64,000 nucleotides of DNA from Candidatus Nitrospinota bacterium M3_3B_026 (GTDB lineage: Bacteria > Nitrospinota_A > UBA7883 > JBPRGF01): assembly GCA_051418015.1 (NCBI GenBank), contig JBPRGF010000019.1:31408-95407 (forward strand), read 5' to 3'. Every line of letters starts with the position of its first letter. The first letter of the stretch is position 1. Both the position numbers and the translations under genes were made by a program. Below the pieces are notes generated by a model. That model was not told the origin of the DNA, did no database searches, and worked only from the letters and a program-made list of their open reading frames with translations. Positions 15,672 through 56,382 of this stretch are shown piece by piece.

Positions 15672-15684
15672 GAGACCGTCTCCA

Positions 15685-16329: not shown

Positions 16330-16340
16330 TTTTCCTTACC

Positions 16341-17078: not shown

Positions 17079-17097
17079 GATCTTTCCCCTTTTCTCA

Positions 17098-17886: not shown

Positions 17887-17913
17887 CTGCGTAAACCTCC
17901 AGTGAATCAGCCG

Positions 17914-38192: not shown

Positions 38193-38955
38193 CCCCGCGC
38201 GGACAGGGCGCGGGCGCCGCCGGAGCTTTTGAGCAGGCGCGGCATCCGGTGAGCGGCTTCAGACTGAATTTTCTTATCGAACAGTCCCTCATGTCGAGGG
38301 ATACGAGCCCGTCCGATACGCTCCCGTATCCTGAGAGAAGCTTGACCGCCTCCATGGCCGCCATTGCGCCTATGGCGTGCGCCGCCGCACCGAAGACGGG
38401 GAACCCGAACGGGTCCCAGTCGGGCGGGTCGTCCGGATAGAGGCAGTCTAGACATCCTGTCACCCCCTTCCTGAAGAGCGCCATCTGCGCCTCGAGCCCG
38501 TCCATGGCGGCGAACAGGAGCGGCAGACCGTTTTCCATGGCCAGCCGGTTCAGCGCCCGGCGCTCCGGAAAGTTGTGCCGGGCGTCGATGACGAGGTCCA
38601 CCCCGGCCATGAGCGGCGCGAGCCCCTCCACGGTGATCCCGATGTCATGCGCCTCCACCTCCACGAACCTCGAGTATTCCTCCAGCCTCTCCTTCGCGGT
38701 CATGACGCGGGACTTGCCGACGCTCTCCTCCTTCATCAGCGTCTGGCGATTCAGGTTCGTCTCCGTGAGGGGCCCGGAGTGGACGAGGACAAGCTTTCCG
38801 ACGCCCGCCCCAGCCAGAGCGTAGGCGATCTCGCCGCCGAGCCCCCCAATCCCGGCGAGCAGGACCGCACAGCCGCGGAGCGCCTCCTGATGTTCCCGCG
38901 TGAAACCATGGTGGATCATCTGGCGCCGGTATCTCTCCCTCTCCTCGGGCGTCAT
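38104..38955 (-). CDS. hesA: HesA/MoeB/ThiF-family protein
   Basis: ERYRRQ, GIGGLG, TNLNRQ, CLDC and CRAC; last gene of the nifB operon. Start at ATG 38955. Confidence 0.85.
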   Translation of the reverse strand: MTPEERERYRRQMIHHGFTREHQEALRGCAVLLAGIGGLGGEIAYALAGAGVGKLVLVHSGPLTETNLNRQTLMKEESVGKSRVMTAKERLEEYSRFVEVEAHDIGITVEGLAPLMAGVDLVIDARHNFPERRALNRLAMENGLPLLFAAMDGLEAQMALFRKGVTGCLDCLYPDDPPDWDPFGFPVFGAAAHAIGAMAAMEAVKLLSGYGSVSDGLVSLDMRDCSIRKFSLKPLTGCRACSKAPAAPAPCPRGVSPAGPLSGRRWRRSRRGRGRRKTPPRRT

Positions 38956-38966
38956 CCGTCTCTTCC

Positions 38967-40082
38967 TCAATTGATGAATTTTTCCGCAATTCCCGCCAGG
39001 CCGCTGCCGCCGACGGCCTTCTTCGTCCTTACCGCAAGGCTCCGTATCTCGTCCACGATCGCCCCATCCGCCTCCGCCGGAGCCGTAAGGCCAAGCTCCA
39101 CGAGCTTCGCGCGGACGGCTTTCCTCCCGGAATGTTTTCCAAGCGAAATACATCGTTTCGCGCCGACCATCTCCGGGGCGAAAGGCTCGTACATCGCCGG
39201 GTCTTTCAGGACGCCGTCCACGTGTATCCCCGACTCGTGGGTGAAGACCAGCGGGCCGACGATGCTCTTCGACGCGGGCAGAGGCCGCCCGGCCGCGCCC
39301 AGGACGTATTCAGCGAGCCCTTTCAACCGCGTGGCATCCACGCCGGTTTCCAGCCCCATCACGACCTTCAGCGCCATGACGACCTCCTCCAGCGGCGCGC
39401 CTCCGGCGCGCTCGCCGAGCCCCGCCACGGTCGCGTCGACAAAAGCCGCGCCGGCCTTCACCCCGGCGATGGCGTTCGCCGTGGCCAGGCCGAGGTCGTT
39501 GTGCGTGTGGGCCTCTAGGTCCATCGGCCCCGTCCGCTCAGCGAGCCTCTCCAGCCGCTCCTTGAACGAGAAGGGGTCGGACAGCCCGACGGTGTCGCAC
39601 ACCCTGAGCCGGACGGCGCCCGCGTCCCGGGCGGCTTTTCCGAAATCCGCCAGGAACCCCTCATCGGCTCTCGTGGCGTCCTCGGCCCCGATCGAAAGGA
39701 CAGCCCCGGACTCCAGGACGAACTTCGCTATCTCCGCCACCCTGCGCAGAATCCAGCCCTTGTCCCTGCCGAGCTTCTTGCGGATCATGAGGCCGGAGAC
39801 CGGCAGCGAGACGTGTATATGCCGCGCGCCGGTCTCGAGGGATCGTTCGATGTCGTCTTCCACGGCCCTGTTCCACGCGATGACGGAGGCGGAGAGGTCA
39901 AGCCGCGTTATCTCCCGGACAGCCTCGGCCTCCTCCGGGCCCATGGCCGGGATCCCCGCCTCGATGTAATGGACCCCCGCCTCGTCGAGCATCTTCGCGA
40001 TCGCGATCTTTTCCTCGACCGTGAAGGCGACGCCCGGGGTCTGCTCCCCGTCGCGCAGGGTGGTGTCGACTATCTTCACCAT
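38967..40082 (-). CDS. nifV: Homocitrate synthase
   Basis: DTTLRDGEQTPG, IEAGIPAMG, GAEDATRAD, HTHNDLGLATAN, HESGIH; nif context. Confidence 0.93.
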   Translation of the reverse strand: MVKIVDTTLRDGEQTPGVAFTVEEKIAIAKMLDEAGVHYIEAGIPAMGPEEAEAVREITRLDLSASVIAWNRAVEDDIERSLETGARHIHVSLPVSGLMIRKKLGRDKGWILRRVAEIAKFVLESGAVLSIGAEDATRADEGFLADFGKAARDAGAVRLRVCDTVGLSDPFSFKERLERLAERTGPMDLEAHTHNDLGLATANAIAGVKAGAAFVDATVAGLGERAGGAPLEEVVMALKVVMGLETGVDATRLKGLAEYVLGAAGRPLPASKSIVGPLVFTHESGIHVDGVLKDPAMYEPFAPEMVGAKRCISLGKHSGRKAVRAKLVELGLTAPAEADGAIVDEIRSLAVRTKKAVGGSGLAGIAEKFIN

Positions 40083-40092
40083 GGCCTTTTCC

Positions 40093-40293
40093 TCACAGCT
40101 TTTTCGCGTCAAGCGTCACGGGCAGGCTCGGGCGCCTGGAGCTGGGCGCCACGTAAATCCTCATCCCCCCGGCGAGGGTGAGCGTCCCGCCGAACTCGTG
40201 CTCCGGGTCGCCCGCCACTATCTTCGCCTCGAGGTCTTTTTTGGGGATGTAAACGCTGAGCCCGCCGTTCTGCTCTCTTATCGTGACTTTCAT
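40093..40293 (-). CDS. nifT: NifT/FixU
   Basis: MKVTIRE..GGLSVYIPKKDLE...FGG...L..G...LPVTL.A. Confidence 0.9.
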   Translation of the reverse strand: MKVTIREQNGGLSVYIPKKDLEAKIVAGDPEHEFGGTLTLAGGMRIYVAPSSRRPSLPVTLDAKKL

Positions 40294-41699
40294 GCTCCGT
40301 TCCTTTTCTCCATCGCGGATTCGTCCATGGTCGGCGCGGCGCCCTTGGCGGCAAGGCGCGAGGCCGCCTCCACGACGGCCCGCTCGATCGGCGTGTAGGG
40401 AAGATCGGTCACCGGCTTCACGCCCGCCTCGGCGAGTCTTTTCGCCGGGCCGTATCCCACCCGCAGGCAGACCACGGCATGGCAGCCGGAGATCGTCTCG
40501 ATGATCCGCTCCAACGGGTCCTCGCCGCCGCATTCGGCTGGGCCGCCGCAGTAGCTCTCCACTTTTCTGACGTTGACGAGCCTCGCCTCACCTCCCGCGA
40601 CCCTGTAGATGAAAAACTCCTTCGCATGGCCGAAATGCTGGTTCACCAGCCCCAGCCCCTTCGTGCAGGCGGCTACCAGGAACCCGCCATGCGCGCCGGG
40701 CTTGCCTTCCCTCCCAGACGCGGCGCGGCGGGCCAGAAACTCGCCGACACGTCTTTTCCACTCCGCCCGTCCCGCCGCTCCGTTGTCCTCCGGCGCCGGC
40801 GCGGAGGCGAGCGCCTCCTTGGTGAAACCGGCGAAGCCGTCCTTCCCCAGCCTCCCGGCGGCGTCGGCGCGGCACTGCCTGCAATGGGCCATCTGTTTCA
40901 TATCCCCGCAGGCCTCGCGGACGGCCTCCAATTCCGCGGCGGCAGGCTCCGGCCAGCCCATCACGCCGAGCTTCGTTCCGTGCTCGGGGCGCGATATCAG
41001 CGGCATGATGTTGTGAATGAAAACGCCCATGAGCTTGAGTTTTTTCGAAATGAACGGCAGTTCTTCATCGTTGATCCCCGGTATCAGGATGGAATTGACC
41101 TTGACCAGTATCCCCTTCTCCACGAGAGCGCGGATCCCCTCCCGCTGCGCCGCAAGGAACTTCTCCATCGCCTCTTGGCTGTTTGATTTTCTCCCGCTCA
41201 CGGCCACCCATTCATATATCCTCCGCGCCGTCTCCGGCTTGAATGTGTTGACGGTGACCGTGACGTGCCCTACGCCCAAGTCCGCTATCTCACCGGCGTG
41301 GTCCGGAAGCTTCAGGCCGTTGGTGGAAAGGCACAGCGCAAGGTCCGGGAACCGCTCCCTGATCAGGCGCAGCGTCTTGAACGTCCGGCCGGGGTTGGCC
41401 AGCGCGTCCCCCGGCCCGGCGATGCCGATCACCGAAAGCTCCTTCATCCTCACGGCGGCGTGGCGGACTTTCCGCAGCGCCTCTTCCGGTTTCAGCCGCT
41501 CGGAGACGACGCCGGGGCGGGATTCGTTCGCGCAATCGTACTTCCTGTTGCAGTAGGCGCATTGGATGTTGCATCCCGGCGCGACGGCCATGTGCATCCT
41601 CGCGAAGAAATGATGCGCGCTTTCGGAATAGCAGGGGTGGCGGGCCGTCCGCTTGTCCATCGCGGCGGCCGCGAAACCCTGTGGGGAACATCCTCTCAT
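40290..41699 (-). CDS. nifB: FeMo-cofactor biosynthesis radical SAM protein with C-terminal NifX-like domain
   Basis: HPCYS, CNIQCAYCNRKYDC.NESRPG, GIAGPGD, HCRQCRADA, VNQHFGHAKEF. Confidence 0.96.
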   Translation of the reverse strand: MRGCSPQGFAAAAMDKRTARHPCYSESAHHFFARMHMAVAPGCNIQCAYCNRKYDCANESRPGVVSERLKPEEALRKVRHAAVRMKELSVIGIAGPGDALANPGRTFKTLRLIRERFPDLALCLSTNGLKLPDHAGEIADLGVGHVTVTVNTFKPETARRIYEWVAVSGRKSNSQEAMEKFLAAQREGIRALVEKGILVKVNSILIPGINDEELPFISKKLKLMGVFIHNIMPLISRPEHGTKLGVMGWPEPAAAELEAVREACGDMKQMAHCRQCRADAAGRLGKDGFAGFTKEALASAPAPEDNGAAGRAEWKRRVGEFLARRAASGREGKPGAHGGFLVAACTKGLGLVNQHFGHAKEFFIYRVAGGEARLVNVRKVESYCGGPAECGGEDPLERIIETISGCHAVVCLRVGYGPAKRLAEAGVKPVTDLPYTPIERAVVEAASRLAAKGAAPTMDESAMEKRNGA

Positions 41700-41737
41700 T
41701 CGATCGCTCCAGCGGTTTGAATCTTGCGATATGACAG

Positions 41738-41753
41738 AGCAAACGGAATGCCT
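41738..41753 (-). promoter_or_regulatory. sigma54 promoter of nifB
   Basis: Minus strand AGGCAT-TCCGT-TTGCT (GG-N10-GC). Confidence 0.75.
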
Positions 41754-41820
41754 CCGGTCCCCGGCAGGCGCAAAGTGTTGAACCGTTTGCGCGTAAAGGA
41801 TCGCCGCGCGGCGGGCTCCG

Positions 41821-41855
41821 TGTAGCCTAAGCGACAAATTGTAAGGTTTTCTACA
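41821..41855. promoter_or_regulatory. Two tandem NifA upstream activator sequences
   Basis: TGT-AGCCTAAGCG-ACA (41821-41836) and TGT-AAGGTTTTCT-ACA (41840-41855). Confidence 0.82.
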
Positions 41856-42647
41856 TTGACCCTCGGCCACCTGTCATACACGAACATGATCGGCGCTCCC
41901 TCCTCATACTTCGCCTCGCCCGCGTTCAACACGTCTCCCGTCCCGACGCGCATAAACGGAGTCCGGGAGATGAACGGTCCGCTTTTCGAGACGCTGGACC
42001 AGCATGGGAAGGATGACGCGCCATACGTGTTCATGGAGCACATGCGCGTCATGTTCGGCCTGGACGAGGCGCCCGCCGAGGGTGGGAAGCGGCGGCGCAG
42101 GGCAAGCTACCTGCGGCTTTTGCGGGGATGGTTTTTCGACTCCAACGGGGCCGAGGGCGCCGTTATGAAAGGATGGGCCGAGTCCCGCTTCGGCCTGCGG
42201 CCCCTTTACCACGCCGAGCCGATCGACAGCCCGCGCTCCCCTGCCTATTACGTCTACCTGTCGGAGAAGATGAGCCCGCGGTTCAACAACAACTCCATAT
42301 ACTCCCAACTCGACCTGTTGTACGAGTATTGCCAGTATTACCTGGAAAGGTTCGGCCCGGAAAAAAGACGGTTGACCCTTTTCCGAGGGGCGAACATGAC
42401 GCGCCGTGAGCAGCAGGTCATCGAAAGGCGCGGCAGGAGGCTGTGGGTCGTCCGCAACAACAGCCTCGTCTCATACACATCCTCGAAGGAGCGGGCAGAC
42501 GAGTTCGGCGACACGATCATCAAGATCGAGGCGCCCTTCGAGAAGATTCTCTGCTTCCCTGGCCTGCTGCCGGGCGGCCTTCCCGCGTCGGAGGGCGAGA
42601 TCATCATCCTTGGCGGGGATTATCTTTCGGAGATACTCGATTTTTAG
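41856..42647 (+). CDS. draT: NAD+--dinitrogen-reductase ADP-ribosyltransferase
   Basis: GVREMN, ASYLRLLRGW..DSN..EGAV.KGW.ESRFGL, NNSIY.QLDL.YE, FRG, SYTS, FGD, EGE...GG. TTG start; in-frame stop at 41823. Confidence 0.93.
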   Translation: MTLGHLSYTNMIGAPSSYFASPAFNTSPVPTRINGVREMNGPLFETLDQHGKDDAPYVFMEHMRVMFGLDEAPAEGGKRRRRASYLRLLRGWFFDSNGAEGAVMKGWAESRFGLRPLYHAEPIDSPRSPAYYVYLSEKMSPRFNNNSIYSQLDLLYEYCQYYLERFGPEKRRLTLFRGANMTRREQQVIERRGRRLWVVRNNSLVSYTSSKERADEFGDTIIKIEAPFEKILCFPGLLPGGLPASEGEIIILGGDYLSEILDF

Positions 42648-42661
42648 CGCCCGCCCGCGCC

Positions 42662-43552
42662 TTATGGAAGCGGCCGGACGGGGAACATGCTCAAAAGCTC
42701 CTCGACCTGCCGTTCGATCCTCTCCTTCACGCCGCCGTCCAGCTTTCTGAGCCAGCGGGACGGGATGGACTCCGGCCCATAAAACGCTCCCCCCAGCTGG
42801 CCCGCCAGCGCGGCGTTGGTGTCGGCGTCCCCTCCCTGGTTCACGACGCCGACGAGGAGCGACTCGAAGTCATACGTGTTGAAGAAAAAGTGAAGAACGG
42901 TTCTGACGGTCTCGACGATGTACCCTCCGGCCTCGCCTTTGTACCGGCGGTGGTCGAACTGTCCGCGCTGCTCGATCCATTCCCTCGCGATGGACTGCAG
43001 CGGCGCGGCCTGCCCTTCCAATATCGCCGCTCTCGTCAGGCTCCCCAGCATCAGCGTCCCGGCGCCGGATTCCTCGTTGTTGTGGGTTATCCTCGCCTGG
43101 CCGATTGACCATTCCTCGAAGGCGGCGGCTCCGCTCAGCGCCGCTATTATCACGGGCAGGTTGCGCATCGCGGCGCCGTTCCCCGCGGAGCGCCCGGAGC
43201 GCTCCGCCACGAGGCGCCCTTCGTTGATGTACCCGAAGAGGCCGCGGCGAACCGTGTCTCCCATGTCAACCGGCTTCGACCTCATCCACCGGACGAAATG
43301 ATCCGCCGCCGTGGCGGCGTCGAACCCCTTCGCCTCCAGAAGCGCGTCGCCGAGGGCCAGGGCCATCCCGGTGTCGTCGGTGACCCTGCCCGCCTTCAGC
43401 CGCAGCCACCCGCCGCCGATCATGTTTTTATGCACCCCGTGCCGGGCGGCTATCTCCCGCGGGGTCATGAACTCCGTGGTGGCCCCCAGCGCGTCGCCCA
43501 CGGCGAAGCCCAGGTAGGCGGCCCTTGCCCTCTCCTCTACGCCGTCACTCAA
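42662..43552 (-). CDS. draG: ADP-ribosyl-[dinitrogen reductase] glycohydrolase
   Basis: GDALGATTEFM, GGGWL, VTDDT, AGNGAAMR, VVNQGGDADT. Confidence 0.93.
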   Translation of the reverse strand: MSDGVEERARAAYLGFAVGDALGATTEFMTPREIAARHGVHKNMIGGGWLRLKAGRVTDDTGMALALGDALLEAKGFDAATAADHFVRWMRSKPVDMGDTVRRGLFGYINEGRLVAERSGRSAGNGAAMRNLPVIIAALSGAAAFEEWSIGQARITHNNEESGAGTLMLGSLTRAAILEGQAAPLQSIAREWIEQRGQFDHRRYKGEAGGYIVETVRTVLHFFFNTYDFESLLVGVVNQGGDADTNAALAGQLGGAFYGPESIPSRWLRKLDGGVKERIERQVEELLSMFPVRPLP

Positions 43553-43561
43553 AGCATTCGG

Positions 43562-43852
43562 CTAAAACGCGGCCGGCGCCGTGAAGGAATGGCATCCTTT
43601 CGGGCAGACCCGCGAGCAGGCCATGCAGCCTATGCAAAGCCCGTCGTCGGCCACCGTCATCACCATGGCGCCTTCGTCCTCGTAGTCGTCGTCCTCGATG
43701 TCGAGATCCATCCGCTCAACGAGGCTGAACACGCCATGGCCGCAGACCTTGTAGCATCTGCCGCAGCCGATGCAACTCTCCGGGTCCACCGCGTCTATGA
43801 AGGACGGTGTGTAAGCTTCTCCGTTTTTCCTGTAAGCCGTGTAAGCGCTCAT
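43562..43852 (-). CDS. fdxB: nif-specific ferredoxin III
   Basis: CIGCGRCYKVC and CIGCMACSRVCP separated by an acidic loop. Confidence 0.9.
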   Translation of the reverse strand: MSAYTAYRKNGEAYTPSFIDAVDPESCIGCGRCYKVCGHGVFSLVERMDLDIEDDDYEDEGAMVMTVADDGLCIGCMACSRVCPKGCHSFTAPAAF

Positions 43853-43863
43853 GATCCTCTCCC

Positions 43864-44322
43864 CTATTCGTCATCATCGTCGTAGCTATGAAAGCGGTCC
43901 GGGTCGTCTTTTCGGACGATCTTCGCAAGCCATGGCGGGGCGGGGCCCTTGAGAACGTCCATAACCTGGGAGCAGAGCCGGACGATCGCCCTCTCCTCGC
44001 TCGCGATCATGGGTTGTATCTTTCTCCTGGTCAGCCTCGCGGCGGCGGGGCCGCCTATCGCCGACGAGTAGACGATGTGGCATCCCTCCAGCGCGTCTAT
44101 CTTCGCGGCGAGCTTGTTGTCGTTTCCTTTCTCGTCGAGACCGGCGCCGTCGAAGATTATTCTGCCCGCCTTCGAGAATCCGTCCCTGGAGATATCGTAC
44201 AGGACGAAATTTGCGCCCCAGCCGAAATGCTCATCGACGTTCACGCCGTCGCTGGTCGCGAAAGCCACCCGCAGCGCGCCCTCGGCCACGGCCGGCGTGG
44301 TGAGCCTGGCTATGACTTTCAT
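43864..44322 (-). CDS. nifX: NifX
   Basis: VAFATSD...VDEHFG, KIDALEGC, AIGGPAAA, PPWL.K. Confidence 0.92.
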   Translation of the reverse strand: MKVIARLTTPAVAEGALRVAFATSDGVNVDEHFGWGANFVLYDISRDGFSKAGRIIFDGAGLDEKGNDNKLAAKIDALEGCHIVYSSAIGGPAAARLTRRKIQPMIASEERAIVRLCSQVMDVLKGPAPPWLAKIVRKDDPDRFHSYDDDDE

Positions 44323-44325
44323 TTC

Positions 44326-45609
44326 TCACCTCAAGGTTTTTTGAAGGTTGGAGACATACGGAGCGGTCTTTTTCCGCGCCGCCATGACGGCGTTGGCAAG
44401 CTCCATGTACAACCCCGCGGCGCCCCGGTAGCCGGCGCGAATCTTTTGCGGCTCGCCGATCCGGTCATACACGGGCAGACCCGCCCGGACGGCCGGGGCG
44501 CCAAGCCTTTCGGCAAGCTCCGCCACGTGGCTGTTCCCGGCCATGATGACGTCAGGGTCGCCCCCAACCTCCCGCTCGACATCTTCCAGACCGCCTTCGG
44601 GGAACCCATCCGCGGGAAGGGAGCAGACCCCCGAGACCACTGCGCCGATATCCTCGAGCGGCTTCTTCCAGCGGATGATGAACTCCGGGTCGCCAGCGAC
44701 GATCGCGCGTTCGCCGGTGAGATAAAAATGCGTGTCCAGGATCACATCCTGCAAATGGCGCCTGTGGCGGCGTATCCTCTCCGGGACGGGAGCGCCGGAC
44801 ATGCGCGACAGCAGGCCGTAAAACCCGTCGATCTCATCCAGCGTCGAAAGCGAGTCGAAGTGGGCCGAGTCCACGCCGTTAACCTCCGCGAACCGGCGCC
44901 CCGCCTCCTTCATCGACCGCCCGAGCGTTATCACCATGGCGGAATCGGTCAGCGTCCTTATCTCGTCCACCGGCGTCCCTCCCGCCGCCGCGGGGTTGAA
45001 CTCCTTCTCCGTCGCGAAACCGAGCAGGCTCGACCCAAGGTCGGGGAAGACAACCGGCCTCAGCCCGAAAAGCTCGACAGACTCCTTGACCATCTCGATC
45101 TCGGCGGGGGTGAAATAGGGCCCGGGGAATATCGCCACCTGCTTTTTTCGCGGCGCGGAGCGCGGGGCCGCGAGAGTCCGCGACATCGCTTCGAACGCCT
45201 TCACCCAGCCCGTCTGAAACGAGCCTTCATAGTCCGGCGTGTTCACGTGGACTATCGTGGCTCCGGGATTTTTCCGTCCATACTCCTTCACCATCCAGCC
45301 AGGGTCCGCGCCGGAGGTCTCCGCCACGCCGGTTGTGAGCAGGCCGATGAGCGCGGCGTTTTCCCTGACGTTGTCCAGGGCCTCTTCAAGTTCCTCCCCG
45401 CCGCCCATGACGACGGAGACGCTCGTCATGGCCGTGGTCTGGAAGGGCATGGGCTCGCGAAAATGCTGTATGAAAAGTATCTTGGCGAAGGCCGTGCACC
45501 CCTGGACGCCGTGCCACAGCGGGACGCTTCCTTCGACGCCCATGAACGCAAGCGCTGCCCCGGCGGGCTGGGAGAGCTTTATCGGGTTCGTGGTCAGGTA
45601 CTTGCTCAT
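44326..45609 (-). CDS. nifN: FeMo-co scaffold NifN
   Basis: NPIKLSQP.GAALAF.G, HG.QGCTAF, HFREP.P.QTTAM, G.PVYDR.G. Confidence 0.94.
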   Translation of the reverse strand: MSKYLTTNPIKLSQPAGAALAFMGVEGSVPLWHGVQGCTAFAKILFIQHFREPMPFQTTAMTSVSVVMGGGEELEEALDNVRENAALIGLLTTGVAETSGADPGWMVKEYGRKNPGATIVHVNTPDYEGSFQTGWVKAFEAMSRTLAAPRSAPRKKQVAIFPGPYFTPAEIEMVKESVELFGLRPVVFPDLGSSLLGFATEKEFNPAAAGGTPVDEIRTLTDSAMVITLGRSMKEAGRRFAEVNGVDSAHFDSLSTLDEIDGFYGLLSRMSGAPVPERIRRHRRHLQDVILDTHFYLTGERAIVAGDPEFIIRWKKPLEDIGAVVSGVCSLPADGFPEGGLEDVEREVGGDPDVIMAGNSHVAELAERLGAPAVRAGLPVYDRIGEPQKIRAGYRGAAGLYMELANAVMAARKKTAPYVSNLQKTLR

Positions 45610-46976
45610 GGCGCCACCCCCGGCGGATCATCACCGAAAGGGTCCGGCCTTCTCGCCAGGGCGAAGGCGGGGCTTTCGATCTCGCGCGCTATCATCTCTG
45701 CCAGGTTCACGTGTCCGTCGAAGCCGGTGAACGGGGCATGGCGCTCCTGGTTGACGTCGACGAACGGAAGCCGCGCCTTGAGGGCGGTGTACTGGTTGCG
45801 CCCGCCGGCGAGGAGTATGTCCGCGCCTTCCGCGTGATATAGGTCGAGCAACTTGCGGGGGGAGCCTTCGCTTATCATCTTCGCGTCCCTGCCCATAAGC
45901 TCGATGATCCGCGCCTTGTCTTCCGCTGTGGACTTTTTCGTCCCGGTGGCGATCACCTCCATCCCAAGCTCCTGCAAGGCGCCGACCAGCGACCAGCTTT
46001 TCACCCCGCCCGTGTAAAGCAGGGCTTTCTTGCCGGCAAGGCGCGTCTTCAGCGAGTCCAGCGCTGGTTTTACTTTCTCGTACTCCTCCTTCAGGACCGC
46101 AAGCGCCCCCGCCGAAAGCTCCGCCGAGCCCATCAGCTCAAGCATCGCCAGTACGGCCTCGATGGTGTTCCTGGATCCATAGAAAGACCCCTCGAAATAC
46201 GGTATTCCATACTTCTCCTTCATACCCCTCGCCACGTTCAGAAGAGCGCGGGAGCAGACCATCATGTTCACGTCCGCCCTATGCATCATCGCCACCTGGT
46301 GATACCGCGCGTCGCCGGACAGCGAACAGATGACCCGTATCCCGATCCTGTCCAGCAGGCGCAGCGGGCTCCAAAGCTCCCCGGCAATGTTGAACTCGCC
46401 TATGAGGTTGACGTTGTACGGATGATCGGCCTTCGGATCCATCGTCCCGATCACGCGCTCAAGGAGGGCGGCTCCCGCGATGCGGTTGCCGAAATTTTTC
46501 GTCCCCGTGAAGCCTGGCGAATCCACCGCGATGACGGGCGTCCCGGTCTTTTCCGTCAGCGCTCTGCAGACAGTCTCCACGTCGTCGCCGATCATGGCCG
46601 TGACGCAGGTCTGGTAGACGAAGACCGCGCCGGGCCTGCGCTTCCTGATGATTTCCTTCACGCCCTTGTAGAGCTTCCTCTCGCCGCCGAAGACCACGTC
46701 GTTGTTGCCGATGTCGGTGGTGAAGCATGTCCTGTAAAGCGCCGGGCCGGACGAGAGCGACCCGCGGTTTCCCCACGTGTTCCCGGCGCACGATATGGGG
46801 CCATGGACGACGTGGGCGGCGTCGGTTATCGGCTGGAGCGTTATCAGGGCGCCGTCGAAGGAGCAGCCGCCCGCCGCCTTGCCGGGCGTGGGGCGTGGGC
46901 AGGAGGTTTCTTTCTTCCTTGCGTTGTGGGAGCAGTCCGGCTCCTTGTAAAGCTCCCGGACGGCCGAAAGGATCAT
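45606..46976 (-). CDS. nifE: FeMo-co scaffold NifE
   Basis: GGCSFDGA, HGPISC, VYQTCV, YTGGVKSWS, AGGRNQY, NQERH. Confidence 0.96.
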   Translation of the reverse strand: MILSAVRELYKEPDCSHNARKKETSCPRPTPGKAAGGCSFDGALITLQPITDAAHVVHGPISCAGNTWGNRGSLSSGPALYRTCFTTDIGNNDVVFGGERKLYKGVKEIIRKRRPGAVFVYQTCVTAMIGDDVETVCRALTEKTGTPVIAVDSPGFTGTKNFGNRIAGAALLERVIGTMDPKADHPYNVNLIGEFNIAGELWSPLRLLDRIGIRVICSLSGDARYHQVAMMHRADVNMMVCSRALLNVARGMKEKYGIPYFEGSFYGSRNTIEAVLAMLELMGSAELSAGALAVLKEEYEKVKPALDSLKTRLAGKKALLYTGGVKSWSLVGALQELGMEVIATGTKKSTAEDKARIIELMGRDAKMISEGSPRKLLDLYHAEGADILLAGGRNQYTALKARLPFVDVNQERHAPFTGFDGHVNLAEMIAREIESPAFALARRPDPFGDDPPGVAP

Positions 46977-46978
46977 CG

Positions 46979-48505
46979 CTACCTCACGAAATCGTTGTTG
47001 AAATCAGCCTTCCTGTCCAGGTCCTCGAGGATCGCGTTCACGCTCCACTGCAGCAGGTTTATGACCCCCTGGTAGCCGAAGACGGGGTACCGATGCAGAT
47101 GATGCCTGTCGAAGATCGGGAACTGCGCCCGTATGAGCGGGACGTCGAACTCCTTGGATATCTGCTTGCCATACGTGCTCCCGACGATGAAATCGACCGG
47201 ATCAGTGGCGATAAGGCTGCGCAGATGCCACAGGTCCTTGCCGTTGTGGATGGTCATGCCCCTGGCGAACGGCGCATCGGCGTATTTTTTCGTAAGGCGC
47301 CTGCCGACACGCTTCGTCGCGTTGGTTATCACCACGTGGACGGGCTCGGCCCCCATCTCCATGTAGAATCCGATGAGCGCCTCGACGTATGAAGGGTCGC
47401 CGAAGATGGCGAACCTCTTGCCGTGCAGGTAGTAATTCGAGTCGGCCATGGCGTCGAGGGCGCGGCCGCGCTCTTTTTCCAGATCCACGGGGATAGGCCT
47501 GCCGGTCAGTTCGCTGACCTTCATCAGGAAGGCGTCGGTCCCGGCGACGCCGAGCGGCGTGGCCCCGTCGACGAACTCCGTCCCCCACACGTTCTTCACA
47601 AGCTCCGCGGTGGCCTTCCCCGCGCTGTCCGGCAGCAGGGCGAAGACGGCTTTTGAGTTTCTGGCCTCCTTTACCTGCTCGATGGTCGTTCCTCCATCGT
47701 ACATCCGGTACTCGCCGTCCATGGGTGTGTCGAGGGTGTCCGAGTTGTCGCCGAGGATGACGTGATCGGCCCCCATCGCATCCAGCAGCCTTTTCACCTC
47801 CCTTATGTTGCCGACGCAGAATCCGTCGAACCCGGGGATGATGGCGATCTTGCCGTTATCCGCCTTGGCCTTAGGCTCGTCTCCGGCCAGGTGGAACAGC
47901 ATCCCTCTCATCATGTTGTCGTAGCCTGTCAGATGGCTCCCAACGAAAGATGGGGTGTGGGCGAAGGGAACCGGAAGATCCTCCGGGACGGCCCCTTCCT
48001 TCCTGGCGTTCTTGATGAAGGCGTTCAGGTCGTCGCCGATCACCTCCGCCATGCAGGTCGTGCAGACGGCGATCATCTTCGGCTTGTAGAGGGCGTGGGC
48101 GTTTCTCAGGCCGGCGATCATGTTCTTCTGCCCGCCGAAGACAGCCGCATCCTCGGTCATGGAGTCCGACACCGCGGCGAATGGCTCCTTGAAATGCCGG
48201 TTGAAGTGCGACCGGAAATAGGCCACGCACCCCTGCGACCCGTGGGTATACGGCAGGCATCCTTCAAACCCCGCCGCGGCGAATATCGCCCCCAGCGGCT
48301 GGCAGGCCTTCGCGGGGTTGATCGTCAGCGCGCCCCTGGCGAAGTTTTTGTCTTTGTACTCCGTTCCACGGGTGTACTCCGCCATTCGAGCGGCCTCCCC
48401 ATCCGGGGCGGGTTTTTCGAAAGCCTTCTTCTTCACGGCGGAGGCTTCATACTCCTCCAGGCCGAAAAGCGTGTTGTGATCCCTTATAACCATGTCTTCA
48501 GGCAT
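46979..48505 (-). CDS. nifK: Nitrogenase MoFe protein beta chain
   Basis: [52 protein letters not shown]. Start 48505 or 48508. Confidence 0.97.
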
Positions 48506-49964
48506 CATCCCCTCCCTGCGCCGCTCCATTCTTCCAGGGCGGCGTTATCTTCCTGTATGCCGGGGCGCTCACGGCCATGTCCATGTCGCGGGCGAAAACC
48601 GCGAATCCGTCGTAGCCGTGATACGGACCGGAGTAGTCCCACGAGTGCATCTGGCGGAAGGGCACGCCCATTTTCTGGGATACGTATTTCTCCTTCACGC
48701 CGGAGCCGACAAGGTCGGGCCGTATCCTTTCTATGAATTTCTCCAGCTCGTACCCCGTCACGTCGTCGTAGATCAGCGTGGCCTCCTTCGCCTCGCCGAT
48801 GGTGCGGTCGTAGTCGTCGTTATGGCCGAACTCGTAGCCCGTCCCCACCACATCCATGCCGAGGTCCTCGTAGGCCCCGATAACGTGGCGCGGGCGCAGG
48901 CCGCCGACGTAGAGCATCACCTTTTTGCCTTCGAGGCGCGGGCGGTATCTGGCGATCACGGCGCCCATAGCCGGCCTGTGGCGCTCTATTACCTTCTCGG
49001 CGTTCTCCTGTATCCTCGAGTCGAAAAAGGCGGCTATTTTCCGGATCGATTCCTCGATCTTCGTCGGGCCGAAGAAGTTGTACTCGATCCACGGGATGCC
49101 GTACTTCTCCTCCATGTGGCGTGAGATGTAGTTCATCGAGCGGTAGCAGTGCAGCAGGTTCAGCCTCGCCCGGTGGCCGGTCCGAAGCTCCGAGAGCGTC
49201 CCGTCGCCCGACCATTGCGCCACGACGCGCAGCCCCATCTCCTCCAGGATGATCCGCGACGCCCAGGCGTCGCCGCCGATGTTGTAGTCGCCTATGATGG
49301 CGACGTCGTAGTCCGTCGCGCCGTCCGGCTCCTCCGTCCCCAAAACGTGGTCGCGGATCGTGTCGTTGGCAATGTGGTGGCCCAGCGACTGGGAGACGCC
49401 CCGGAAACCCTCGCAGCGGACGGGGATGACGGGCTTGCCCGTCTCTTTCGCCATCTTCTTCGCCACGGCCTCGATGTCGTCGCCGATGAGGCCGACGGGG
49501 CACTCGGACTGAATTGTCACCCCCTTCGCCAGCGGGAACATCTCATGGACCTCGCGGATGATCTCCTCCAGCTTCTTGTCGCCGCCGAATACGATGTCCT
49601 TTTCCTGGAAGTCGGAGGTGACCTGCATGGCCACGAAGTTGTCCACCCCCGTCGTCCCGCGGGAGTAGTTGCGGCGCGTTCCCCAGGAATACTGCCCGCA
49701 GCCGACGGGGCCGTGGGATATGTGGACCATGTCTTTTATCGGCCCCCACACGACACCCTTCGACCCCGCGTAGGCGCAGCCCCGGATGGTCATGACGCCG
49801 GGCAGGGACTTGCGGTTCGCCACGACGCACCCGGCGGAGCTTTCAAGCCCGGCGTCGTTGACATACAGGTGCTTCTCGCGGTCGGCCCTGGCCTCCTCCG
49901 GGTACATCGAGAGGACCTCCGATATCAGCGTCTCGCCTGATTCTTTCGTCATTTCAAACGGCAT
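48498..49964 (-). CDS. nifD: Nitrogenase MoFe protein alpha chain
   Basis: RGCAYAG, HGPVGC, SECP, HCYRS (FeMo-co Cys), [18 protein letters not shown] (FeMo-co His). Confidence 0.98.
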
Positions 49965-49994
49965 CTTTCGCGTCTCCAAAACGTGGTTGACGGC

Positions 49995-51008
<1,014 letters not shown>

Positions 51009-51056: not shown

Positions 51057-51072
51057 TGTAGCGTTCCTTACA
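51057..51072. promoter_or_regulatory. NifA upstream activator sequence
   Basis: TGT-AGCGTTCCTT-ACA. Confidence 0.8.
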
Positions 51073-51202: not shown

Positions 51203-51218
51203 CGGCGCCCTATTTGCT
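51203..51218 (+). promoter_or_regulatory. sigma54-type promoter of nifZ-nifL-nifA
   Basis: CGGCGC-CCTAT-TTGCT (GG-N10-GC), 34 nt upstream of the nifZ start. Confidence 0.62.
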
Positions 51219-51252: not shown

Positions 51253-51717
51253 ATGGAAGGGTTTGAGCCGGGAGAGAAGGTCCGCCTTCTCTACGACATC
51301 AAAAACGATGGTACCGTCTTCGGCAAAAGACGCGGCGAGCAGCTCGAGCGGGCGGGCGCCATCGGTTTTGTCAAACGGCGGGGACGCTTTCTCGATGATA
51401 TCGTCTACGACGTCCACTTCCTGGACACCGACGCCATAATCGGCCTCAGGGAAAAAGAGCTGATCCCCGCCTCTGCCCGATGGCGCCCGGCCCGGCTCAA
51501 AAAAGGCGGCGAAGCCATCGCCGCCGCCGAGCTGCGCTTCCGGGGGCGGGTGGTCGCCGGGAAAGGGGCGAGAGGGACGATCGGCGCGGTCCGCTATCAC
51601 GAAAAGCACGGATACGTGTACGAGGTTAAGTTCCACGGCGCGGAGGGTTTTGTCCTCGTGACGGAGAGCCAGGTATGCGGATCCGGCGGCGCGGCTGGAG
51701 GTTCCTCGAAGCCATGA
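51253..51717 (+). CDS. nifZ: NifZ
   Basis: GEKVR...DIKNDGT..G..RGE.L...G..G.V...G.FL...VY.VHF......G.RE.EL. Confidence 0.88.
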   Translation: MEGFEPGEKVRLLYDIKNDGTVFGKRRGEQLERAGAIGFVKRRGRFLDDIVYDVHFLDTDAIIGLREKELIPASARWRPARLKKGGEAIAAAELRFRGRVVAGKGARGTIGAVRYHEKHGYVYEVKFHGAEGFVLVTESQVCGSGGAAGGSSKP

Positions 51718-53327
51718 TCGTCGCGCATCTGCTGGACGACCTTTCCCACATCCGCAGGGAGCTTGCGCTGTGGGCGCCCTCCGACGACCACGGCAGGCGC
51801 GCCCTTGACGCCATCGGCGAGCGCATAGCTAGGCTCGACTGTGAAGTGGCCAGGCTGGAGCGCGAAAACGCCGCCCGGCTGGAGGAAAAAAAGCAGCTGG
51901 AGATAGCCCTCCTCTTCACCGACGACGCCGTCTGCGTGACCAGCGCCGGCGGGGAGATCCGCCTCATCAACCCGGCCTTCGAAAGACTCTCCGGCGTCCC
52001 CGGGGAGGAGAACATAGGGTCGTCCGTCTACGCGCTGTGGGAGGATGTCTCCGCCGCAAAGACCCTGGAGAGCATGAGGTCGGAGGCGCTGTCCGGCGGG
52101 ACGTGGCGCGGCCGCCTCCGCGCCGCCTCCCGCGATGGGGAAGAGCGCGTGGCAGAGGTCACCGTCGAGCCGATAATCGGCCACGACGGCGTCATCAACA
52201 GCCTGGTCTTCACCCAGAGGGACATCACCGCCGGGGTGAAGGCGGAAAGGGAGCTTTCCGCCCAGAAGGAGCTGCTGGAAAAAATCCTGAATCTCTCCTC
52301 GAACGCCGTCGTGGCGCTCGACGCGGGCGGCGGCTGGCTCCTTGACAACCTCGCGGCGAAGACGCTCATCGCCGACCTTGGCCCCGGCGGCAGGGAAGAG
52401 CTCGGGCGAGCGCTGCTCGGCTGGCTTTCGGCGAACCCGTTTCCGAAACGGCGGAAGCTGACCCTGACCCTCGCCAACCGGACAGAAGCTCACTACTACG
52501 TCCAGGCTGAAAAAATCCCCGGTGAATACCTGTTTCCAGGTTGCGCCGGAACGAGCCTTTTCCTCGTCACGATGTCGAACATCACGGAGCTGGAGCGCAA
52601 GAGCAGGGAGGTAATCGCCAGGAGGCAGGCCATGGCCTCCCTGAAGCAGGAGAAGATCCTGGCCCATGACGAGATGGCCAACGGCATCGTATGCAAAATG
52701 TCCCAGCCGCTGAACGTGGCCCGCGCCATCACCGGCAGGATGCGGACGCTGATCGCCGAAAACGACATGGAAGGGGTCACCAACAACCTCGCACTCCTGC
52801 AGGAGATGATAGGGGCGATGGAGGGCCTGATGGGCGAGTTCAAAAGGATGTCCGAGGCGGACGCGGCGGAGAGCCCACGATGCGGAATCGGCGAGCTTTT
52901 CGAGTTCGTGGACGTCATTTACAGGAGCAGGGCGGAGGAGGAGGGTGTGTCCCTCCAGATCGAAAACGGGCGGCGGGGTGTGGCCGTTCCGATGGCCGGG
53001 GAGACCATGCGGATGGCCATCGCCATGCTCATGGACAACGCCTTCGACGCCGTGGCGGACGGCGCGGACAAAAGGATCCGCCTCCGCCTCGAAGAGCCGG
53101 GGGATGAAGTCCGCGTCATTGTGGAGGACAGCGGCCCCGGCGTCCCCGGGGAGGACCGGATACGGGTCTTCGAGCCTTTCTTCACGACCAAGAGCGGGCG
53201 GCGGGGTTTGTCGCTGGCGCTTGTCAGCCAGGCCGTTAACAAGGCCGGGGGGAGCGTCGCCGCCGGGGCGTCGCTTTTGGGAGGCGCCGCTTTTTCCCTT
53301 GCGTTTCCATTGAAGACAGACCCATGA
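51714..53327 (+). CDS. nifL: NifL-like PAS-PAS-GHKL protein
   Basis: PAS1 (INPAF..LSG..W.G..RDIT), PAS2 (LLDN...K.L..DL), His-less H-box region (NGIVCKMSQPLN), DNA.DA, EDSGPG, FEPFFTTK; ATGA overlap with nifA. Confidence 0.72.
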   Translation: MIVAHLLDDLSHIRRELALWAPSDDHGRRALDAIGERIARLDCEVARLERENAARLEEKKQLEIALLFTDDAVCVTSAGGEIRLINPAFERLSGVPGEENIGSSVYALWEDVSAAKTLESMRSEALSGGTWRGRLRAASRDGEERVAEVTVEPIIGHDGVINSLVFTQRDITAGVKAERELSAQKELLEKILNLSSNAVVALDAGGGWLLDNLAAKTLIADLGPGGREELGRALLGWLSANPFPKRRKLTLTLANRTEAHYYVQAEKIPGEYLFPGCAGTSLFLVTMSNITELERKSREVIARRQAMASLKQEKILAHDEMANGIVCKMSQPLNVARAITGRMRTLIAENDMEGVTNNLALLQEMIGAMEGLMGEFKRMSEADAAESPRCGIGELFEFVDVIYRSRAEEEGVSLQIENGRRGVAVPMAGETMRMAIAMLMDNAFDAVADGADKRIRLRLEEPGDEVRVIVEDSGPGVPGEDRIRVFEPFFTTKSGRRGLSLALVSQAVNKAGGSVAAGASLLGGAAFSLAFPLKTDP

Positions 53328-54886
53328 GCGACCTGTCCGAAAGGGCCATGCAGGCCGTCCACCTGGTGTCGGAGCGCATGGCCGGCGCGAGCGATATCGG
53401 CGGCACGATCGGGAGTATCCTGTCCATCCTCAACGACTCGCTGGGATATGGAAGCGGGATGGTGACGCTGCTCGACGAGCGGTCGGAAGGGCTGCTGGTC
53501 GAGGCCGTCCACGGAATCTCCAGCGACCGCTACAAGGACGTACGCTACAGGAAGGGGGAAGGGCTGACCGGGCTCATCCTGGAGACGAAAGCGCCGCTTG
53601 CCATCCCCCTGGTGAAAAACGACCCCCGGTTCGTCAACAAGCTCTCCATATACCCTCCCGGCGTGGCTTTCGTGGGGGCGCCGATACAGGTGAACGGGGA
53701 CGCGCGCGGGGCGTTCTCCGTCTCCGTTCACGCCTCGGAGCGGTTCCGGCTGGATGAGCACGTCAGGATCGCCTCCACCTTCGCCAACCTCATCGGCGCG
53801 GTGTTCACGCGGCTGATCGACGCCGAGAAGGAAAAGGAAAACATCAGGCGCGAAAAAAGAAGGCTGGAGAGCCAGCTTCGGACGGTCTACCGGCCCGAAA
53901 ACATGATCGGCGTGAGCAAGAAGATGGAGGAGGTGTTCGACGCCATTGACCAGACGGCCAAGTGGAACGTCACGGCGCTGATCCGGGGAGAGTCCGGCAC
54001 GGGCAAGGAGCTGGTGGCGAAGGCGATCCACTACCGGTCGCCCCGGTCCGGCGGCCCTTTCGTAAAGCTCAACTGCGCCGCCGTGCCGGACTCCCTCCTG
54101 GAAAGCGAGCTTTTCGGGCACGAGAAGGGCGCCTTTACCGGCGCGGCCGCCGCCAAGCCGGGCCGGTTCGAACTGGCCGACAAGGGAACCCTTTTTCTCG
54201 ACGAGATCGGCGACACGACGCCCGCTTTCCAGGCGAAGCTGCTGCGGGTGTTGCAGGAAGGGCAGTTCGAAAGGCTCGGCGGAACACAGACTTTGACCGT
54301 GGACGTCCGCCTCATAGCCGCCACCAACGTGGACCTGGAGGAGGCGGTGGCGAAAAACAGGTTCCGCGAGGACCTTTACTACCGGCTGAACGTCATGCCG
54401 ATATACCTGCCCCCTCTGCGCGAGCGCAGGGAGGACATACCGCACCTCGTCTACTTCTTCCTCGAAAAACTCGGCGGGGAGGCCGGGCGAAGCATATCGA
54501 TGAGCCAGGAGGCGATGGCGCTGCTTTGCAAATGCGACTTCCCAGGCAACGTCCGTGAGCTGGAAAACTGCGTTCGCCGCTCCGCCGTCAAATCGAGCGG
54601 AGAGGTCATCCGGGCCGAGGATGTCCCCTGCCACTTCTCGCAATGCGGAGGCAGGCTGATCCGGACAAAGATGGCCGAGGCGTTCCCGCGCGGACAGGGC
54701 GCGGACGAGGACGCCCAGGGCGGCCCTGGCGAAATACTTTCCATCGAAAACGAGCGCGACAGGATACTGGCGGCGCTGAAAAAGGCCGGATGGACGCAGG
54801 CGAAGGCCGCGAGGATGCTGAACATGACGCCGAGGCAGATCGGCTACCGGATAGCCAAGCTCAATATCGACCTTGAAAACTATTGA
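53324..54886 (+). CDS. nifA: Nif-specific sigma54 activator NifA
   Basis: GAF domain, GESGTGKE, GAFTGA, CX11CX19CX4C, HTH QAKAARMLNMTPRQIGYRI. Confidence 0.96.
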   Translation: MSDLSERAMQAVHLVSERMAGASDIGGTIGSILSILNDSLGYGSGMVTLLDERSEGLLVEAVHGISSDRYKDVRYRKGEGLTGLILETKAPLAIPLVKNDPRFVNKLSIYPPGVAFVGAPIQVNGDARGAFSVSVHASERFRLDEHVRIASTFANLIGAVFTRLIDAEKEKENIRREKRRLESQLRTVYRPENMIGVSKKMEEVFDAIDQTAKWNVTALIRGESGTGKELVAKAIHYRSPRSGGPFVKLNCAAVPDSLLESELFGHEKGAFTGAAAAKPGRFELADKGTLFLDEIGDTTPAFQAKLLRVLQEGQFERLGGTQTLTVDVRLIAATNVDLEEAVAKNRFREDLYYRLNVMPIYLPPLRERREDIPHLVYFFLEKLGGEAGRSISMSQEAMALLCKCDFPGNVRELENCVRRSAVKSSGEVIRAEDVPCHFSQCGGRLIRTKMAEAFPRGQGADEDAQGGPGEILSIENERDRILAALKKAGWTQAKAARMLNMTPRQIGYRIAKLNIDLENY

Positions 54887-54910: not shown

Positions 54911-55603
54911 TCACAGCTTCTTGCCGGACCAGACAACCCTGCCGAGGATATCCACGGCGCCTGTTCCGTTTTTCGGAATCACCTGGTCCTCGTAGGCGGT
55001 GTTGTCGCACTTAACCTTGACCCTTCCGTCATACATGCGCTGGACGCGCCTTGCGACGACGGCCCGGCCTTCCCGCAGCGCGTAAATGGCGTCGAACACG
55101 ATGTCGCGTTGACCGATATCCAGGAGAAGTATGTCCCCTGAGTTTATGGTCGGCTCCATGCAATCCCCCGAGACCGTTATCATCACGAGGGAGTGGCTGT
55201 TGTCCCGGAGCCGGTTTTTTATCCACTCGTCATCGAGCGGGAAGGACGCCCCGCCGCCGGACCGCCGGGGAAGAGACGTCCCATCCCACAGGGTCCCGGC
55301 GTCGAAAAACGGAACGTACAGAAAATCCTCGGCAGTCTCCCGGGGGCGCCCGCCTCTCTGTATGGGCCCCTCGCCCGTCGCCAGCCATTCCACGGTCACC
55401 CCGGCCGCTTTCGCCATGGCCACGAGCCTTTTCCGGGTTGGGTCCGACTTGCCGGAAAGGTAAAGCCCGACGGCCCTCCTCGAAACGCCGGACTTTTTCG
55501 ACAGGGCGGTGGCGTTCCCGGCCATCATAGCAATATACTCCATTCTCTGCCTGAAGGAGAGCCGCCCGGCGCGCCCCGTGCCGTCCAAAGCCGCCCTCTT
55601 CAT
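54911..55603 (-). CDS. Phage CI-like repressor (HTH plus degenerate S24 peptidase domain)
   Basis: N-terminal HTH ending VEWLATGEGP; VSGDCMEPTINSGD; DNTAY; ILGRVVW. Confidence 0.85.
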   Translation of the reverse strand: MKRAALDGTGRAGRLSFRQRMEYIAMMAGNATALSKKSGVSRRAVGLYLSGKSDPTRKRLVAMAKAAGVTVEWLATGEGPIQRGGRPRETAEDFLYVPFFDAGTLWDGTSLPRRSGGGASFPLDDEWIKNRLRDNSHSLVMITVSGDCMEPTINSGDILLLDIGQRDIVFDAIYALREGRAVVARRVQRMYDGRVKVKCDNTAYEDQVIPKNGTGAVDILGRVVWSGKKL

Positions 55604-55735
55604 TCCCCGCCGCCCGGGCCTTGAGAGTTTGGAAGATATAACATATTGTATAACATAATATTATCGCCGCGCCCCGGCGCGGGGCGGCGGTAATATCTTT
55701 TGCCTTTTTTGGGGGTGAGATGTTTGATTTTTTTA

Positions 55736-55764
55736 TTGATTGCTTGGCATAATTCTGCTATGCT
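55736..55764 (+). promoter_or_regulatory. sigma70-type promoter of the ner-like gene
   Basis: TTGATT-N17-TATGCT with an extended TGn. Confidence 0.55.
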
Positions 55765-55785
55765 TTTGCCGTTGTGGGGAAGGAT

Positions 55786-56124
55786 ATGAACATACCAGAG
55801 AGCGCCCGCGAGAGAAGGGAGTGGATAAAGTACCAGCTCCGGCTCCGGGGGGACAACCTCGCCTCCATCGCCCGCGAGATGGGGGTAAGCAGGCACGCCT
55901 CCATCCTGGCGCTGCGCAAACCCTATCCCAGGATGGAGCGCGCCATAGCTGGGAAACTCGGGATGAGCCCCTCGGCCCTCTGGCCGGAGCGTTACGACAG
56001 CAATGGTACGCCGAACCGGCGGCGGGGGCGGCCACGGTCTTCCGGGGAACGGAATAATCTTCCTAACCATGTTGATAAAGATAGTACCAATATCATCGAC
56101 GGACGCAACCATAAAAAACGCTGA
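55786..56124 (+). CDS. Ner/Nlp (SfsB)-family DNA-binding protein
   Basis: IKYQLRLRG..LA.IAR..G....AL.KPYPRMERAIA..LG..P..LWPERY. Confidence 0.85.
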   Translation: MNIPESARERREWIKYQLRLRGDNLASIAREMGVSRHASILALRKPYPRMERAIAGKLGMSPSALWPERYDSNGTPNRRRGRPRSSGERNNLPNHVDKDSTNIIDGRNHKKR

Positions 56125-56382
56125 TTTCAAAGAGGGCGCCTGGGCTGGCGGGTCCTGGGGCGTGCTTGTATGAACCATACTATCAATAAGTTTTGAGTGG
56201 CCGGAACTGGTATCTTTTACATTGCGAAGCGAATACGGCGCGGTTTGAAAGCCGCTTGGCGGATCATCCGCGATACAGGCCGCGGGTATTAATTGTAGAC
56301 GATATGGCGTGGCTGTGGCGGGTGGAAGGCAAAGATAGCGCTGACCGCTGGCAACAGAGACCTCCAGGGCGTATGGGAGAGC

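Follow-up and report, generated by a model that had tools for sequence, protein, structure and literature searches.

A divergent NifL-like protein paired with a four-cysteine NifA in uncultured bacteria labelled Nitrospinota and related groups

A NifL-like gene encoded with a four-cysteine NifA

Two arrangements of nif control by NifA have been described, and in passages of two published accounts (PMC9866876; PMC10590331) they are set against each other: NifL is found in gamma-type systems, and a cysteine motif of NifA where NifL is absent. Reviews treat the flavoprotein partner NifL and the Cys motif within NifA as mutually exclusive ways of shutting off nif transcription in O2. Excerpts of PMC8219145 and PMC11773926 report the NifL-NifA pair from Gamma-, Beta-, Alpha- (Martelella) and Zetaproteobacteria. 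Here, we describe a pair that combines the two arrangements. It is encoded in a stretch of 64,000 nucleotides (hereafter, the window) from contig JBPRGF010000019.1 of Candidatus Nitrospinota bacterium M3_3B_026, where a gene for a NifL-like protein (hereafter, the partner) lies directly upstream of nifA, and the encoded NifA carries the motif CX11CX19CX4C. An initial annotation of this DNA had proposed that the cysteine motif and NifL, which are alternatives in the known systems, occur here together, and had ventured that the combination was undescribed. The alternative occurrence that the literature states is matched in our genome samples of Pseudomonadota, and the pairing is real, conserved and rare: the two genes are adjacent in 13 of 13 distinct genomes, with the motif present in all 12 NifAs in which the relevant segment can be read. 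A full-text literature search, with subscription-only papers outside its scope, found no description of a NifL-like partner with a Cys-motif NifA. We consider this natural and conserved pair to be a probably new variant of the NifL-NifA system, and a credible candidate for an evolutionary intermediate.

The pair is part of a plus-strand operon that is divergent from nifH:

51253..51717, plus strand: nifZ (PF04319, E 3e-24), which opens the nifZ / nifL-like / nifA operon
51714..53327, plus strand: nifL-like gene, 537 amino acids; helical hairpin, PAS1, PAS2, dimerisation helices, GHKL
53324..54886, plus strand: nifA, 520 amino acids; GAF, AAA+ sigma-54 activator, linker, helix-turn-helix (HTH)
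54533..54646, plus strand: four-cysteine motif of NifA, CX11CX19CX4C in translation

The ATG of the nifL-like gene at 51714 overlaps the TGA of nifZ (51715-51717), and the nifL-like open reading frame (ORF) ends at 53327, with the nifA ATG at 53324, i.e., a 4-nt overlap, as the initial annotation had described. Through these two start/stop overlaps, nifZ, the nifL-like gene and nifA are chained as three genes. Both the order, with the partner gene preceding nifA, and the translational coupling are those of the NifL-NifA systems of Azotobacter vinelandii, Klebsiella and other Proteobacteria (9qq6; PMC12998190).

The assignment of NifA is straightforward. The protein scores 590.4 bits against TIGR01817 (cut-off 528.85; model positions 3-532 of 534), and it is the sole protein above this cut-off in the 2.85-Mb genome, among 30 sigma-54 activator matches. 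Its Pfam domains are GAF_2, Sigma54_activat, AAA_lid_14 and HTH_8, and the GAFTGA signature is present in the translation. The four cysteines, C404-X11-C416-X19-C436-X4-C441, are contained in CKCDFPGNVRELENCVRRSAVKSSGEVIRAEDVPCHFSQC, at the border of the AAA+ domain and the linker, and are read as C404-DFPGNVRELEN-C416-(19)-C436-HFSQ-C441; the translation maps them to exactly the nucleotides that had been proposed for the motif. Spacing and context, C-x2-[FW]PGNVRELENC...C-x4-C, are the same as in the Cys-motif NifAs of Bradyrhizobium, Azospirillum and Herbaspirillum.

The partner has few close relatives. A word-indexed search of 5.8 billion proteins retrieved only seven close partner clusters (32-100% identity), followed by a gap down to E ~1e-32, where matches named NifL start. 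When 1.84 billion cluster representatives were scanned in full by HMMER with a profile of these relatives (hereafter, the clade), ~15 matches covered the full length in a single stretch (E <=1e-106), and two more were fragments; further down, giant multi-PAS proteins dominate. In a scan of one genome per species, we identified 10 related loci (L009-L018), with the public labels Nitrospinota (two loci), SAR324, 'Candidatus Lambdaproteobacteria', 'Deltaproteobacteria' and unclassified metagenome-assembled genomes (MAGs). In all 10, nifA is located directly downstream of the partner gene; the motif is present in nine of the encoded NifAs, and the tenth (L017) is cut by the contig end. The nifA start lies within a few bases of the partner stop in 11 of 11 loci examined, and nifZ directly precedes the pair in five of the 10 related loci. 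Within the phylum-level group of the window, the partner is encoded in six of 33 species genomes, and a NifA above the cut-off in the same six, always in adjacent position; three of these loci are identical to L009, L010 and L016, and two genomes, G007 and G032, are new, both with the motif. The four cysteines are invariant in the alignment of 10 clade NifAs, which are 52-68% identical to the NifA of the window, and occur in both of the further relatives, G007 and G032. Such invariance across divergent proteins shows that the motif did not arise by chance.

The same species-level scan also returned loci L019-L051, from Chitinibacteraceae and others, in which only the PAS or GHKL parts match. 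With the filter applied, a sigma-54 activator ORF was found in none of the 33, and we set them aside as unrelated kinases. A study of non-nitrite-oxidising Nitrospinota MAGs mentions 'regulatory nif genes' (PMC10839748); the likeness to the present loci consists in the two related loci labelled Nitrospinota. The passages concerned give no features of NifL or NifA, and the term nifA does not occur in the main text.

For comparison, we surveyed two samples, both confined to Pseudomonadota. The class sample comprises 400 genomes spread evenly over the class to which a betaproteobacterial entry belongs, 25 of them with a NifL above the curated cut-off; the phylum sample comprises 401 genomes spread evenly over the phylum of the same entry, with 50 NifA loci above the cut-off. 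An activator is found downstream of NifL in 24 of the 25 class-sample loci, and none of these 24 NifAs shows the four-Cys pattern that the window NifA carries. In the 23 canonical-NifL loci with a readable PGNVRELEN, position 1 of the motif is taken by H, Y or some other residue, and Cys occurs at neither position 3 nor position 4. Of the 50 phylum-sample loci, 17 show the motif but lack a NifL-like ORF upstream, nine show NifL but lack the motif, and 24 have neither. The nif locus of the window differs from the alpha/beta Cys-motif systems, in which an upstream NifL-like gene is lacking in 17 of 17 sampled loci. The initial annotation had called for such a survey and had allowed that the combination might already be common; no locus with both the motif and NifL was found among the 50 Pseudomonadota NifA loci.

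Relationship of the partner to NifL

The best NCBIfam match of the partner is TIGR02938, nifL (129.6 bits, model positions 15-492 of 494), with AtoS next at 91.4 bits; canonical NifLs from 25 genomes score 482-890 bits against the same model. Pfam detects one PAS domain and HATPase_c in the partner, and no HisKA domain. Among Protein Data Bank entries, the best sequence match is A. vinelandii NifL (9qq6_A), aligned over residues 72-527 of the partner and 55-527 of the entry (E 2.5e-22, phmmer). An AlphaFold2 model built from 11 homologues (mean predicted local distance difference test score, pLDDT, 80.8) consists of an N-terminal helical hairpin (residues 2-67), PAS1 (72-170), PAS2 (198-289), two long helices (291-377) and a GHKL domain (389-532). 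With this model as the query, the top Foldseek match is again 9qq6_A, i.e., the A. vinelandii NifL-NifA complex (E 8.6e-32; template modelling (TM) scores 0.62/0.66; 500 columns), followed at a distance by the next-best entry (E 1.2e-21, TM 0.37).

In a tree of the partner family (11 clade members, 25 canonical NifLs and 10 other PAS kinases), each of the three groups is monophyletic, and a branch with a Shimodaira-Hasegawa-like approximate likelihood ratio test (SH-aLRT) support of 99 sets the 10 other kinases apart from the clade together with canonical NifL. On both the sequence and the predicted structure, the partner is a genuine but divergent homologue of NifL, colinear with the A. vinelandii protein. 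The divergence is considerable: identity to NifL-like metagenome proteins is no more than 22-27%, and the partner's N-terminal helical extension of ~60 residues has no counterpart in canonical NifL.

The partner shares with NifL the succession of two PAS domains, dimerisation helices and GHKL, in which a functional kinase His is lacking. The phospho-acceptor column, placed by way of the A. vinelandii H in 'IHRLQGP', is occupied by Cys in the partner of the window and by Tyr in its relatives; in NifL-like metagenome proteins it is Tyr, Phe or His. Without a HisKA domain and a phospho-acceptor His, the partner is, as judged from these features, unable to act as a kinase. The N box and the G1 box of the GHKL domain, which are kept as in NifL, are invariant in the clade (N442, D472, G474, G476).

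The PAS domains were compared with those of the 25 canonical NifLs taken from genomes. Of 38 PAS1 columns with a conservation of at least 88% among the canonical proteins, the clade keeps only 10. Residues that vary within the clade stand in place of the N-[EQH]-S-x-L-S and T-P segments of NifL PAS1, and none of the 11 members has the RWFxC insert of PAS2. The lost segments include the Glu of N-E-S (E70 in A. vinelandii), which we take to be central to flavin redox signalling. These replacements suggest that the partner has likely lost the flavin. The initial annotation had called the partner flavin-less; with 10 of 38 columns kept this is suggested, but it is not proven by the loss of residues alone. 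The passages searched in PMC3466315 and PMC10372690 do not list flavin-contact residues.

Phylogenetic position of NifA and a possible division of labour

A maximum likelihood tree of NifA (IQ-TREE, LG+C20+F+G4) was constructed from 64 sequences: 10 from the clade, 15 Cys-motif NifAs without NifL, nine NifL-partnered, 24 with neither feature, and, as the outgroup, six further sigma-54 activators from the same genome. Two NifAs of 372 amino acids (L141, L142), the truncated L017, the NifAs of G007 and G032, and the paralogue L006 were left out. The clade is fully supported (100/100, ultrafast bootstrap (UFBoot) and SH-aLRT, here and below), and the NifL-less Cys-motif NifAs of alpha/beta type are supported at 100/97. 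The clade is not the sister of the latter; instead, a branch with support of 99/97 joins it to all motif-less NifAs, i.e., the gamma-type, including those partnered by NifL. A tree constrained to group the clade with the Cys-motif NifAs is worse by 11.6 log-likelihood units, with a P value of 0.046 in the approximately unbiased test, a borderline result for a grouping that was picked after the tree had been seen. In the sister lineage, positions 1, 3 and 4 of the motif are never Cys (33 of 33 sequences).

Identity values agree with this position. The clade is closer to NifL-partnered than to Cys-motif NifAs in the GAF domain (31.0 vs 22.6%), the AAA+ domain (63.6 vs 59.5%) and the HTH (66.9 vs 53.2%), so that the NifA backbone is nearest to that of NifL-partnered NifAs; the 45-residue Cys segment alone is closer to Cys-motif NifAs (44.9 vs 37.5%). 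A mosaic origin, with a Cys-type C-terminus on a NifL-type body, was considered and set aside: GAF, AAA+ and HTH are all nearer to the NifL-partnered NifAs, and no sign of a mosaic is seen in segments that are too short for separate trees.

A single position is informative with respect to the interaction with NifL. According to PMC12998190, charge reversal at K230, E356, E360 or E366 of A. vinelandii NifA frees it from NifL. At the E366 position, which corresponds to E349 of the window NifA, Glu is present in 10 of 10 clade NifAs, nine of nine NifL-partnered NifAs and, beyond the tree, in both G007 and G032; the canonical loci of the class sample (n=25) show 22 Glu, one Asp and two unreadable residues. 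Among NifL-less NifAs, Glu occurs in one of 39, namely in one of the 24 with neither feature, whereas the Cys-motif group has Ala in 15 of 15. Relatives are not independent, and these counts reflect a few events, not 60. By sequence comparison, Glu at this position is ancestral, having been dropped in partnerless NifAs and kept in partnered ones, the clade included. On the partner side, E298 of A. vinelandii NifL aligns to the conserved E320.

By analogy with A. vinelandii, we propose, with a probability of roughly 0.55, that these bacteria employ a NifA of the NifL lineage that keeps four-cysteine control by O2, together with a divergent, non-kinase anti-activator of NifL type that brings in other signals. 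A dimer of the NifL-like protein would hold NifA inactive, with the dimerisation helices and the GHKL domain binding the AAA+ domain sterically, as in A. vinelandii NifL. Control by O2 or redox state would rest mostly on the Cys motif of NifA itself, because the NifL-specific residues of PAS1 are largely replaced, and the partner would report other states, e.g., adenylate, PII or a PAS ligand of another kind. The initial annotation had similarly assigned O2 sensing to NifA and nitrogen or energy status to the partner. The genome encodes several heme-copper oxidase homologues and has six PII-family matches, which makes O2 and PII signals plausible inputs.

Several observations weigh against this proposal. 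The score of the partner is below the TIGR02938 cut-off of 242.45 bits, and the partner-family tree cannot show the clade as the sister of canonical NifL. In 11 of 11 clade members, GLSL takes the place of GMGL in the G2 box, and two of the three tested contact residues of A. vinelandii NifL are changed (R323 to Thr, E488 to Gln). Glu at the E366 position is general in sigma-54 activators (six of six in the outgroup), which indicates retention and not a new adaptation. Finally, the loss of NifL-type PAS1 residues is compatible with a flavin or another redox cofactor being present.

The last point leads to an alternative in which the partner senses redox state or O2 through another cofactor or ligand in the altered PAS1 (or in PAS2), so that O2 control would be redundant between partner and NifA and labour would not be divided. 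In the model, PAS1 has an intact and confidently predicted fold (residues 71-170, block pLDDT mostly 82-90), the NPAFE and RD elements common to NifL are kept, and the domain-level Foldseek matches include FAD- and heme-binding PAS sensors (3ewk, 8js5). However, the variable replacement of residues that the 25 canonical NifLs conserve in the N-x-S-x-L-S and T-P segments, and the lack of a conserved His or Cys among the invariant PAS1 columns that would suggest a heme or a cluster, make such a redundant arrangement unlikely in our view. It is also conceivable that the partner is not an anti-activator of NifA at all but a co-activator, a PII scaffold or a regulator of another protein, which travels with nifA in a mobile nif cluster. 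The score below the family cut-off, the two altered contact residues and the N-terminal extension would all fit such a role, but a partner gene that lies directly upstream of nifA in all 13 genomes, nearly contiguous with it in 11 of 11 loci, that co-occurs with nifA exactly within the phylum and that lacks the phospho-acceptor His, next to a NifA that retains Glu at the E366 position, is hard to reconcile with it, and we consider this explanation quite improbable.

Alternatively, the Cys motif could be a structural relic or a non-sensory metal site, with all input arriving through the partner as in canonical NifL-NifA. The clade NifA does belong to a lineage that otherwise works without the motif, and the mode of O2 sensing by the motif is described in PMC10590331 as unresolved even in model organisms. 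Yet a relic would be expected to decay, as has happened in the motif-less sister lineage, whereas all 12 NifAs, at an overall identity of just 52-68%, have kept every one of the four Cys; we regard a motif devoid of sensory function as very unlikely. Thus, an O2-sensitive NifA with a NifL-type anti-activator for other signals remains our preferred interpretation.

With respect to evolution, the simplest reading of the tree, as rooted by an outgroup with long branches, is that the motif is ancestral, that the common base of the clade and the gamma-type NifAs already had a NifL-type partner, and that the motif was lost once, later. The suggestion of the initial annotation that the system is an evolutionary intermediate gains support from the 99/97 branch to the motif-less group, tempered by the borderline rejection of the forced alternative. 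Going one step further, we tentatively put forward, as a possible scenario that we hold to be less probable than not, that the clade represents the ancestral NifL-NifA module: an anti-activator derived from a PAS kinase would have been recruited to an already O2-sensitive four-Cys NifA, and later, in the proteobacterial lineage, a flavin-containing PAS1 would have taken over O2 sensing, after which the motif was lost. If this is true, the two modes of O2 control of nif known from textbooks would have followed each other within one lineage rather than being alternatives, and uncultured bacteria labelled Nitrospinota, SAR324 and related groups would be its living intermediate.

Apart from its origin, the pair offers a natural two-part system for a direct test of NifL recruitment and of the point at which the Cys motif became dispensable. 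In the clade NifA, Cys-motif sensing can be studied on a NifL-type backbone, with the solved homologous complex as a guide, and the pair could serve as a compact orthogonal regulator for engineering nif control. Since curated NifL models miss the clade, annotation-based surveys would score these diazotrophs as lacking NifL.

A separate observation concerns the 24 of 50 phylum-sample NifAs with neither feature (loci L099, L111, L120-L146). No NifL-like gene is found within 1.3-1.9 kb upstream of them, and they form two well-supported clades nested with the NifL-partnered NifAs. Their O2 sensing falls outside the two-mode textbook picture.

The surrounding nif region

The minus-strand nif cluster extends over 38104-50969 and encodes nifH, D, K, E, N, X, a ferredoxin gene, draG, nifB, a nifT-like gene, nifV and a ThiF-family gene. 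The features relevant to regulation are the following:

49995..50969, minus strand: nifH as the listed ORF (PF00142, E 1.4e-132), which heads nifHDKENX; the likely ATG is ~87 nt inside this ORF
50950..50965, minus strand: sigma-54-like -24/-12 element upstream of nifH, TGGCACGCCCTGTGCC, two mismatches to the consensus
51057..51072, no strand assigned: TGT-N10-ACA in the interval of nifH and nifZ, a putative NifA upstream-activator-type site; the distance to the sigma-54-like element of nifH is ~95 bp
51203..51218, plus strand: sigma-54-like -24/-12 element 35 bp upstream of nifZ, CGGCGCCCTATTTGCT, two mismatches
41738-41753, minus strand: sigma-54-like site near nifB
41821..41855, no strand assigned: pair of TGT-N10-ACA sites adjoining the draT start, upstream of nifB
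41856..42647, plus strand: draT (PF07357 DRAT, E 2.1e-86)
42662..43552, minus strand: draG (PF03747 ADP_ribosyl_GH, E 5.4e-56)

Both draT and draG are located within the nif cluster, and the family matches bear out the initial annotation, which had recognised them. Azoarcus is reported to have both DraT/DraG and NifLA, and the presence of DraT/DraG beside NifLA is not new in itself.

Three of the four TGT-N10-ACA sites of the window lie upstream of the sigma-54-like elements of nifH/nifZ and nifB, at ~90-145 bp from a -24/-12 element each. Neither pattern is more frequent than expected by chance in the 64 kb (four TGT-N10-ACA sites against 3.4 expected, 11 sigma-54-like sites against 20), so that only the placement of the sites counts as evidence. 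The tandem TGT-N10-ACA sites precede nifB on one side, and the plus-strand draT, divergent from nifB, begins immediately after them; the two genes may share a predicted control region bound by NifA.

In the 146-amino-acid ORF that overlaps the end of nifB (40093-40533), the NifT/FixU domain covers residues 81-143 only, which implies either an internal true start or an N-terminal extension without explanation. At the tail of the cluster, the ThiF-family (E1-like) gene (38104-39153) overlaps the end of nifV.

Immediately beyond nifA, the opposite strand encodes an S24-peptidase/HTH repressor of the LexA/CI type (54911-55603), with a small winged-HTH (HTH_35) ORF beside it (55774-56124). Neighbouring ORFs, within 54911-56178, have a third-position GC content of 0.50-0.56, compared to ~0.85 elsewhere, and this segment may be what is left of a mobile element bordering the nif region. 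On the other side, upstream of the nif region, a large flagellar block (1-18711) encodes flagellins, FliW, FlgK, FlgN, FlgI, FlgH, FlgA and rod proteins; a DsrE-family gene is found at 8307-8798.

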